Below are positions 37,716 through 38,498 of a stretch of DNA of 44,696 bases, piece by piece. This stretch comes from Escherichia phage Pandora71. Each line of letters starts with the position of its first letter. Within the stretch, counting starts at the first letter, position 1. The position numbers and the translations under genes were made by a program. Where the stretch lies: sequence record PV841870.1; one strand, given 5' to 3'. Under the pieces are notes generated by a model that ran no database searches, was not told where the DNA came from, and saw only the letters and a program-made list of their open reading frames with translations.

Positions 37716-38498
37716 TTAACGGCGGCGACGTTTACGCGGCGCTTCGTCTTCGTCGTCGTCCTCATCTTCGTCATCGCGTGGCTTACGACGTTTGCGAGGT
37801 TTTTCATCCTCGTCATCGTCGTCGTCATCGCGGCGCTTGGATTTTTTGGACTTGCGCGGTTTGTCGTCTTCGTCATCGTCATCACGACGTTTTGACTTTT
37901 TGGACTTACGCGGGCTTTCGTCTTCGTCGTCGTTGTCCAGGTCTTCATCGGAGCAAGAAGACCCGCCACCGCCGAAGGCTTCACCGTCATCACGGAATCG
38001 CAGACCCAGCAAGCCAGCCCCGAGACCCTTACCGTTGGTATTGTTCCATGCCCAAATATCAAGGGACACGTTGCAATAACAACCGGAGTAGATCTCCTGG
38101 CCTTCAATCTCGTCGCCGTCGATGGTCAGACCCTGTTCAGTCTGCTTCTCGCCGAGTGACGTTTGAATGATAGGCTGTTTGAACGACTTGGCGTTGATGT
38201 ACAACATGCCTTCGAATTCTTCGGTCACTTCGTCGCGCTCGTCGCCGTCGCGAACTGCACATTCCTTAGAATCCAGGGCGTAGTGGCGGTCCATCCACTT
38301 ATCGGCATTCTTCTCAGATTTCAGCTTGTCGGTGAGCACTGCGCGTGCTGCCGCTTCCACTTTGTCCACCTGCGGATCTTCTTTATCCAGAAGAATCACG
38401 GCACGGTATGCCGGTTTTTGTCCATCCTGTTTAGGGGTATCACGCTCCCAAATTTTCAGGAAGCATACGCGCACATTTTTCAGGTTGACTTTAGCCAT
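37716..38498 (-). CDS. single-stranded DNA-binding protein candidate (T7 gp2.5-like) with charge-repeat tail
   Basis: ATG 38498 with GAGGA RBS; acidic/basic repeat C-terminus; adjacent to PD-(D/E)XK exonuclease. Confidence 0.55.
   Translation of the reverse strand: MAKVNLKNVRVCFLKIWERDTPKQDGQKPAYRAVILLDKEDPQVDKVEAAARAVLTDKLKSEKNADKWMDRHYALDSKECAVRDGDERDEVTEEFEGMLYINAKSFKQPIIQTSLGEKQTEQGLTIDGDEIEGQEIYSGCYCNVSLDIWAWNNTNGKGLGAGLLGLRFRDDGEAFGGGGSSCSDEDLDNDDEDESPRKSKKSKRRDDDDEDDKPRKSKKSKRRDDDDDDEDEKPRKRRKPRDDEDEDDDEDEAPRKRRRR
37730..37920. repeat. imperfect tandem repeat (about 63-bp unit) encoding DDDDEDxKPRKSKKSKRR repeats
   Basis: repeated GTCATCGTC...TTTTTTGGACTTGCGCGG units. Confidence 0.65.

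Follow-up and report, generated by a model that had tools for sequence, protein, structure and literature searches.

An alternating-charge C-terminal tail on the Enc34/gp2.5-type single-stranded DNA-binding protein predicted in Escherichia phage Pandora71

The SSB, or binding protein for single-stranded DNA (ssDNA), predicted in Escherichia phage Pandora71 ends in a 78-residue tail in which acidic and basic blocks alternate, an architecture that departs from the canonical phage and bacterial SSB tail within a known SSB family. The DNA analyzed, called the window here, is the whole 44,696-nucleotide (nt) stretch of sequence record PV841870.1. It is a Dhillonvirus genome (HK578-like Escherichia coli siphophages), and the kilobase carrying the SSB gene matches 154 phage records at 80-97% identity, some of which label the gene ssDNA-binding protein. 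SSB tails organize replisomes, and the accepted bacterial and phage picture is of a purely acidic tail with a hydrophobic tip. An alternating-charge array replaces this accepted tail in a large phage group; among its members are laboratory workhorses of the BASEL and SECphi collections, whose SSB is already known as a trigger of Retron-Eco8. The reading we prefer, with a probability of about 0.4, is that a canonical docking motif has been joined to charge-balanced, self-complementary modules that would regulate tail exposure and the association of SSB with other SSBs and with DNA. Coordinates are collected in Table 1.

The charged tail and the domain in front of it

The tail (residues 183-260) consists of four units, each an acidic block of 7-12 amino acids (aa) followed by an xP-R/K-rich block of 8-11 aa. 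In full it reads SDEDLDNDDEDE-SPRKSKKSKRR-DDDDEDD-KPRKSKKSKRR-DDDDDDEDE-KPRKRRKPR-DDEDEDDDEDE-APRKRRRR. Its 78 aa include 28 K/R and 36 D/E, for a charged fraction of 0.82 and a net charge of -8, and the last residues are PRKRRRR. Charge segregation (kappa) is 0.564 vs 0.105±0.045 in composition-preserving shuffles (z=10), a value that 0 of 20,000 shuffles reached, and the autocorrelation of charge along the tail is maximal at a lag of 18 aa. At the DNA level, Tandem Repeats Finder reported a period of 54 over positions 37810-37933 (2.3 copies, 82% matches, score 171), and a repeat search over 37732-37950 gave four copies with start-to-start distances of 60, 60 and 54 nt, one 54-nt pair being 80% identical. 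One unit accordingly measures 18-20 aa (54-60 bp), and the repeats extend over 37719-37952. A first-pass annotation of this DNA had described an imperfect ~63-bp tandem repeat at 37730-37920 that encodes at least three units of the type DDDDEDxKPRKSKKSKRR. The repeat is there and its period and extent are corrected by the values above, while the estimate of at least three units agrees with the four acidic/basic units that we count.

In an AlphaFold2 model built on 51 homologues, the predicted local distance difference test score (pLDDT) was averaged over 10-residue blocks. Block means are 91-98 for residues 1-170, fall to 66 (171-180) and 61 (181-190) and lie at 49-54 beyond residue 190; the tail is without secondary structure. 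By its composition and by this model, the tail is a blocky polyampholyte that is predicted to be disordered. A charged single alpha-helix (ER/K type) or a coiled coil was considered and rejected: the Asp-rich blocks are 7-12 residues long, there is a Pro at each junction, and DSSP assigns no further helix beyond residue 72. Nor is it an SSB tail in the canonical sense (short, purely acidic, with a hydrophobic or aromatic end).

The domain in front of the tail belongs to a known family. Residues 3-193 match Pfam PF10991 (Enc34_ssDNA-bd, formerly DUF2815) at E=4.7e-31, scoring 108.3 bits where the cutoff is 26, and the protein matches PHROG 112 ('Gp2.5-like ssDNA binding/annealing protein') at E=6.1e-55. 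A sequence search of the PDB with the SSB returned 4KLK, 4JG2 and ORF6 of phage Enc34 (5ODJ/5ODK). In Foldseek, the probability was 1.0 for 4klk, 5odl (the Enc34 SSB-ssDNA complex), 4jg2 and T7 gp2.5 (1je5). Individual values were E=2e-12 and a target template-modelling (TM) score of 0.77 for 5odl_A, E=5.8e-13 for 4klk and E=1.3e-6 for 1je5; across 5odl_A, 4klk, 5odj and 4jg2, E ranged from 1e-10 to 6e-13 and target TM from 0.63 to 0.77. The SSB has no match at E≤0.01 to the E. coli-type SSB family PF00436, Foldseek gave E. coli SSB structures no better than E≈1-2, and the DDDIPF tip is absent. Profile searches place the gene in a replication module, beside a DUF2800 nuclease and a family A polymerase (PolA, 35199-37490), and the order nuclease, SSB and polymerase is repeated in four related loci (L020, L021, L025 and L026) and in phage Enc34.

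Thus, by profile, fold and context, the protein is a member of PF10991. From sequence and model together, we describe it as a replication/recombination SSB of Dhillonvirus with an oligonucleotide/oligosaccharide-binding (OB) fold of the Enc34/T7-gp2.5 type, for which ssDNA binding is predicted. The first-pass annotation had proposed an SSB-like N-terminal domain, which PF10991, PHROG 112, pLDDT above 90 and Foldseek all bear out; the possibility it raised against itself, that this domain might not fold as an OB fold, is contradicted by the confident model and the Foldseek matches. In the Enc34-ssDNA complex, the contact residues are Y30, Y37, R112, W150 and Y156 (PMC5686142). Three of the five are kept in kind in the window protein (W150 as W149, Y30 as F13, R112 as K104) and two are changed (Y37 to D20, Y156 to N155); W16 and W151 lie nearby and could substitute. 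The near-identical proteins of SECphi4 and SECphi18 have been called 'predicted SSB (Gp2.5 family)', and a T56P change in them escapes Retron-Eco8 (bioRxiv 10.1101/2022.08.27.505566); the structural figure of that study leaves out the 'flexible C-terminal residues'. Retron-Eco8 senses SSBs, and its triggering by these two proteins lends indirect support to the predicted ssDNA binding.

Selection, copy number and distribution of the modules

The PRKSKKSKRR cores of basic blocks 1 and 2 are identical as protein, while 6 of ~7.3 synonymous sites differ between them. Identity of the blocks combined with synonymous divergence points to an old duplication held by selection and not to fresh slippage. 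Among 15 Dhillonvirus alleles, the ratio of nonsynonymous to synonymous polymorphism (pN/pS) is 0.116 in the tail vs 0.061 in the OB domain. Block differences that are synonymous only, together with the low pN/pS, argue that selection acts on the tail protein and not on a DNA-level element. These allele comparisons place the tail's amino-acid sequence under purifying selection.

The first-pass annotation had predicted that repeat number varies between isolates and proposed a comparison across related genomes. That comparison found 1, 2, 3 or 4 units in Dhillonviruses. Sixty rows were sampled evenly from 150 matching phage records, and 57 of them span the whole query. The span differed from the window by -9 to +15 bp in 49 of the 57 and was shorter by 51-60 bp in five, by 108 bp in two and by 174 bp in one. 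Translated loci carry one unit in phage welsh (202 aa), two in phage EP23 (224 aa), three in TheodorHerzl, Sloth, EK99P-1, CHD5UKE2 and SECphi4 and four in the window, mckay, SECphi18 and rolling, as in most others; in Kente, too, there are four units, the last acidic block being longer. The translated length variants (1-4 units), from plaque-forming isolates, are all in frame and keep the alternation, the first block and the terminal APRKRRRR; alternation and APRKRRRR are likewise present in all six in-frame shorter variants (1-3 units). Loss or gain in frame with both ends kept is the pattern expected from unequal recombination between repeats. This natural 1-4-copy variation in near-identical phages amounts to an allelic series in which one could study how a disordered tail, through its charge patterning, affects ssDNA binding, cooperativity, partner hand-off and possibly condensation.

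One apparent exception was set aside. In P0005 (phage 22664B1, locus L018, MZ234008), the tail is frameshifted by a 1-nt deletion after DDDLGD, and intact codons for a 3-unit tail with its stop lie downstream; from this arrangement, the frameshift is probably a sequencing or assembly error. P0008 also reads the tail in another frame, and such entries appear as 262-269-aa 'hypothetical proteins'. The alternative frame of the tail is open because of its codon composition.

The alternating architecture extends beyond the genus. In the set of 120 best homologues, basic blocks number 1-8 (mode 2-3) in 116 of the 118 tails parsed, and the architecture is kept at 30-57% identity, where the DNA is unrelated. 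Some homologues carry tails of the RD/RS type (P0151, P0190). When the N-terminal domain alone was searched against 1.8 billion cluster representatives, 2088 relatives were retrieved, of which 147 were listed in addition to those above. Among these 147 listed relatives of the 2088, no basic block is present in 133 of 143 parsed tails (median tail 29 aa), and a hydrophobic tip such as DDDIPF, DDLA or DDWLS ends 128 of the 147. A scan of viral contigs with the whole SSB was dominated by low-complexity patterns, and only 8 loci were confirmed. The tail had been called unusual at first pass; this holds within PF10991, where 133 of 143 tails are without a basic block, but it is no oddity of one isolate, being clade-wide in 116 of 118 homologues.

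A second group with alternating tails (P0106-P0120) has 4-8 modules and N-terminal domains 28-37% identical to that of the window SSB. The N-terminal domains of P0108 and P0118 are 51-59% identical to those of short-tailed members, and the rest of the group are closest to each other; for P0113 (Amorphus orientalis), a look-up of the gene context returned nothing. Most members of this group keep an acidic-hydrophobic tip (DDDVA, DDDDVV, DDEIPF) after the modules. These relationships suggest that modules have probably expanded at least twice independently in PF10991, a case of convergence.

Three regularities of charge accompany the modules. (i) Over 128 tails, the acidic count equals 1.13 times the basic count plus 6.7 (r=0.90). 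Median net charge is -9 in alternating tails vs -7 in plain short tails. Similar net charges and the coupling of acidic to basic residues together identify the modules as near-neutral additions to a canonical acidic tail. (ii) Pro, in the form xP[RK], is found at 304 of 323 acid-to-basic junctions (94%). (iii) The median net charge of the OB domain is -5 in the window clade, -2 in the second clade and +2 in short-tailed relatives, statistics that ignore phylogeny.

A shared acidic motif and the possible role of the modules

Within the first acidic block lies [ST]D[DE]DL, a motif that recurs in other replication proteins of the window. It has four occurrences in three of these proteins vs 0.06 expected in the window proteome, and 0 of 2000 shuffles reach three. 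Set side by side, the peptides from the helicase-primase, the exonuclease and the SSB are SATDDDLKD, EATDEDLSNE and CSDEDLDNDDEDE. In the metagenomic phage loci L020, L021, L025, L026 and L027, where the SSBs are only 39-57% identical, helicase-primase and nuclease both keep the motif at the C-terminus. Other lineages share other tips. In Enc34 (L028; NC_019524, 568-10334), (D/E)(D/E)EV ends four proteins (primase, ORF3, exonuclease and SSB) and the SNF2 helicase ends in WDDEED; in L022, DDVV ends both the SSB and a 144-aa protein; and in L023, the SSB ends in DDVA and a 146-aa protein in EDLA. Across these loci, the tips co-vary, lineage by lineage. Shared tips go unmentioned in the Enc34 structure paper, and our full-text literature searches found no description of an alternating SSB tail or of a shared [ST]D[DE]DL motif.

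In T7, one front basic patch on the polymerase gp5 receives both the gp2.5 tail and a peptide of the gp4 tail (bioRxiv 10.1101/2025.03.07.642097). By this analogy, and from its recurrence, [ST]D[DE]DL looks like a common docking motif. The co-varying C-terminal motifs suggest a simple docking code for an uncharacterized type of replisome; if this is true, interaction partners would be predictable from sequence. As far as sequence can tell, only the first acidic block of the window SSB resembles a canonical docking tail. The comparison with the acidic gp2.5 tail drawn at first pass therefore applies to this block and not to blocks 2-4, which are pure D/E with no hydrophobic anchor.

Comparison with characterized proteins sets out what is shared and what is new. 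The SSB of Enterobacter/Hafnia phage Enc34 (ORF6; 5ODJ/5ODK/5ODL) has the same Pfam family, the same fold, a disordered C-terminal segment and part of the DNA contacts, and the two genomes share the order primase/helicase, helix-turn-helix (HTH) regulator, small proteins, DUF2800 exonuclease, SSB, PolA, VRR-NUC and SNF2 helicase. However, N-domain identity is ~26%, and the Enc34 tail has 29 residues, is purely acidic (16 D/E) and ends in WDEDEV, whereas the window tail has 78 residues, alternates and ends in RRRR. T7 gp2.5 is also an OB-fold SSB/annealing protein, its acidic tail serves both partner contact and self-regulation, and in T7, too, a tail motif is common to the SSB and the helicase-primase (gp4 ...DTDF, gp2.5 ...DGDF; here [ST]DxDL). 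Unlike the window SSB, to which it is 11-13% identical, gp2.5 has a short tail with no basic blocks that requires its terminal Phe; the shared motif is internal to the window tail, and the C-terminus is poly-Arg.

Farther afield, E. coli SSB resembles the window protein in its three-part layout of fold, disordered spacer and acidic docking element. In the second alternating clade, the modules lie just where E. coli SSB has its linker, with the OB fold before them and a hydrophobic acidic tip after them (DDEIPF in P0108), and that linker tunes cooperativity and condensation. E. coli SSB belongs to another OB family, though, and its linker is Gly/Gln/Pro-rich and nearly uncharged; the window SSB has no terminal tip. 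In T4 gp32, a basic N-terminal B-domain (cooperativity), with a short K/R/S/T segment, and an acidic C-terminal A-domain (partners) both lie outside the DNA-binding core. There is no known homology to gp32, whose segments are single-copy and at opposite ends, whereas the window SSB interleaves and repeats them in a single tail. Among eukaryotes, mixed-charge or blocky polyampholyte disordered regions (nucleolar proteins with D/E tracts and K blocks, Arg-rich domains) are likewise charged, segregated and variable in repeat number, but they have no known evolutionary relation to the window SSB, a bacteriophage protein with no known compartment.

In the mechanism we prefer, the first acidic block SDEDLDNDDEDE would be the counterpart of the canonical acidic SSB tail. 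Through [ST]DxDL, the SSB, the helicase-primase and the DUF2800 exonuclease might share or compete for one receptor. The putative receptor is most likely PolA, by analogy with T7 gp2.5 and gp4 on gp5; the SSB's own basic DNA groove would be the alternative. The modules behind the first block would behave as a nearly charge-balanced, self-complementary blocky polyampholyte. Off DNA, their basic blocks would neutralize the acidic blocks as well as the acidic docking segment, and the tail itself would stand in for the groove sequestration that may operate in short-tailed relatives with more basic OB domains. On ssDNA, the basic blocks would touch the DNA or the acidic blocks of neighboring SSBs, so that the docking motif becomes exposed, and such contacts could lead to cooperative, multivalent SSB-SSB clustering. 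Module number would not be critical (1-4 in the genus, up to 8 elsewhere) and would drift by in-frame unequal recombination between repeats. Full-length Enc34 SSB does not bind double-stranded DNA (dsDNA), and deletion of its tail permits dsDNA binding (PMC5686142).

Several observations weigh against this mechanism. AlphaFold2 leaves the tail unplaced, and no confident structural prediction has the tail touching another tail, the OB domain or the polymerase. The receptor of the motif is only putative, and the window PolA has diverged too far from T7 gp5 to map the basic patch onto it; in the attempt, matches to solved PolA structures, with no T7 gp5 among them, covered only ~90 residues around motif A, and the mapping was given up. 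The correlation between OB charge and tail type rests on two clades, and clade-specific acidic insertions may explain it. Phage welsh is viable with one unit, so any effect of multivalency is dispensable in the laboratory, and some of the short variants could themselves be assembly collapses. Also, the T7 SSB tail is dispensable for Retron-Eco8 sensing (PMC13402713); with the escape change T56P, too, located in the OB domain, the Retron-Eco8 phenotype is uninformative about the tail.

There are four other ways to read the array. The basic blocks could be DNA-binding arms, in which Arg/Lys blocks bind nucleic acid and raise affinity or annealing while the acidic blocks keep the tail soluble and net-negative; we consider this unlikely, while recognizing what speaks for it. 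The blocks are P/S/K/R-rich (SPRKSKKSKRR), 116 of 118 close homologues have at least one of them, the annotation of PHROG 112 is that of an annealing protein, and in the alternating clades the OB domain is more acidic by 4-7 charges than in short-tailed relatives, which looks like a transfer of positive charge to the tail. Parallels for basic arms exist in the N-terminal B-domain of T4 gp32 (LAST motif) and in SPKK-type motifs. However, plain DNA binding needs neither the acid:basic coupling (r=0.90) nor strict alternation, the net charge of the tail remains negative, and full-length Enc34 SSB does not bind dsDNA.

Rather less likely, in our judgment, is that the tail is a condensate scaffold that drives self-coacervation of SSB into a replication compartment or reservoir, possibly together with a second alternating-charge protein; ssDNA would dissolve or remodel such a condensate, as reported for E. 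coli SSB. A kappa of 0.56, a charged fraction of 0.82, the variable multivalency and the occurrence in the same module of a second protein with an alternating Lys/Asp-Glu repeat (40743-41255, PHROG 3127) are consistent with it. The case is purely physicochemical, though, and other points count against it: phages with one- and two-unit variants are viable, the net charge of the whole protein (-16) disfavors self-coacervation without counter-ions or partners, and SSBs of the gp2.5 type are dimers or monomers with a valency below that of the tetrameric E. coli SSB. A broader scheme would join a lineage-specific tip code (SSB, helicase/primase, exonuclease, small protein), the twice-evolved SSB array and the second alternating-charge protein in one electrostatic condensate with its valency set by repeat number; we would wager against this speculation about as readily.

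We give little credence to the idea of a multivalent docking array, in which each acidic block would be a copy of the partner-binding tail and one SSB would bind several molecules of polymerase, helicase or nuclease at once. The tail does offer four acidic blocks (7-12 residues each), and the T7 acidic tail binds polymerase and helicase alike, but the hydrophobic anchor (DEDL) is found only in the first block, blocks 2-4 being pure D/E, and the obligatory Pro-basic blocks and acid:basic coupling are left unexplained. Finally, a neutral low-complexity expansion (functionless slippage in a GA-rich codon run) or a cis element at the DNA level would fit the variable copy number, the viable one-unit variant and the tandem DNA repeat, but is hardly credible given a pN/pS of 0.12, paired basic blocks that are synonymously saturated yet identical as protein, an architecture kept at 30-57% identity despite unrelated DNA, Pro at 94% of junctions with an acid:basic r of 0.90, and six in-frame variants (1-3 units) that all keep the alternation and APRKRRRR.

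Gene boundaries, locus and other repeats in the window

Table 1. Coordinates of the SSB gene, its parts and the shared-motif sites in the window
Feature	Position	Strand	Basis or remark
SSB gene, 260 codons and TAA stop	37716..38498	minus	ORF translation, PF10991, PHROG 112
OB-fold ssDNA-binding domain (predicted), residues 1-175	37974..38498	minus	AlphaFold2, Foldseek, Enc34 contact alignment
Gly/Ser hinge GGGGSSC, residues 176-182	37953..37973	minus	sequence; pLDDT <50 at residues 178-181
Proximal acidic block SDEDLDNDDEDE, residues 183-194, with [ST]D[DE]DL	37917..37952	minus	D186 nearly invariant in alignment
Basic block 1 SPRKSKKSKRR, residues 195-205	37884..37916	minus	sequence
Unit 2 DDDDEDD + KPRKSKKSKRR, residues 206-223	37830..37883	minus	sequence, repeat searches
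Unit 3 DDDDDDEDE + KPRKRRKPR, residues 224-241	37776..37829	minus	sequence, repeat search
Unit 4 DDEDEDDDEDE + APRKRRRR, residues 242-260, C-terminus	37719..37775	minus	sequence
Putative intrinsic terminator (GC-rich hairpin and T-run), downstream of SSB stop	37677..37697	minus	sequence reading
SSB motif SDEDL, first acidic block	37938-37952	minus	sequence
TDDDL at helicase-primase C-terminus (gene 41999-44263, ...SATDDDLKD)	44240..44254	plus	PHROG 3228/AAA_25
TDEDL at C-terminus of DUF2800/PD-(D/E)XK exonuclease (gene 38824-40254, EATDEDLSNE)	38836..38850	minus	sequence
Second exonuclease copy, TATDEDLGDD	39349-39363	minus	sequence

The SSB gene starts at an ATG (38498) with GAGGA just 5' of it and stops at TAA (37716-37718), for a product of 260 aa. 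An automatic open reading frame (ORF) call had placed the start at an upstream GTG (38519), which was set aside; the homologues all begin MAKVNL. On the coding strand, the hairpin 3' of the stop reads AAGCCCGC-TTAAT-GCGGGCTT and is followed by TTTTT, and 'terminator' is annotated beneath the match in two related phage records. This GC-rich hairpin and T-run form a probable intrinsic terminator; a simple consensus terminator scan does not have it on its list, and it is visible by eye.

Between PolA and the SSB lies a 56-aa ORF (PHROG 10102; 37487-37657, minus strand). In the SECphi18 homologue of this ORF, an E21 frameshift is among the defense-escape mutants of Table S2, in the same block as an escaper with the polymerase change R171L (Borvo) (bioRxiv 10.1101/2022.08.27.505566).

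The PHROG 3127 protein of the replication module (170 aa) is encoded at 40743-41255 on the minus strand, within an ORF of 40743-41435 in which the profile match begins at Met61. It contains the tandem alternating-charge repeat KKPSKAKKEVVEDDDDEAEAPAKTKKAPAKGKAKKEVVEDDDDEDAEDEKPAKAKKAPAKGKGKK, whose acid-x-Pro-basic junction is that of the SSB tail; behind the repeat come a conserved DDxxDEFDDLLE segment and an acidic terminus. L020, L021, L025 and L026 have homologues at the same position.

Two further kinds of repeat were seen in the window. The 9-mer (A/G)GCGGGACA has 25 matches at ≤1 mismatch vs 11.1±3.5 expected and forms clusters on the same strand at 16353-16610 (9 copies) and 44423-44526 (6 copies). 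Of the two, the 44423-44526 cluster lies a short way downstream of the helicase-primase gene, beside a 20-nt direct repeat, TTTGCGCGCATTGGTTGCCA (44266-44285 and 44320-44339). These clusters and the direct repeat could be putative sites for a regulator or an origin protein. Tandem Repeats Finder also reported a 42-bp tandem repeat (2.9 copies, 92% identity) at 27423-27543, within a 538-aa ORF (26888-28504).

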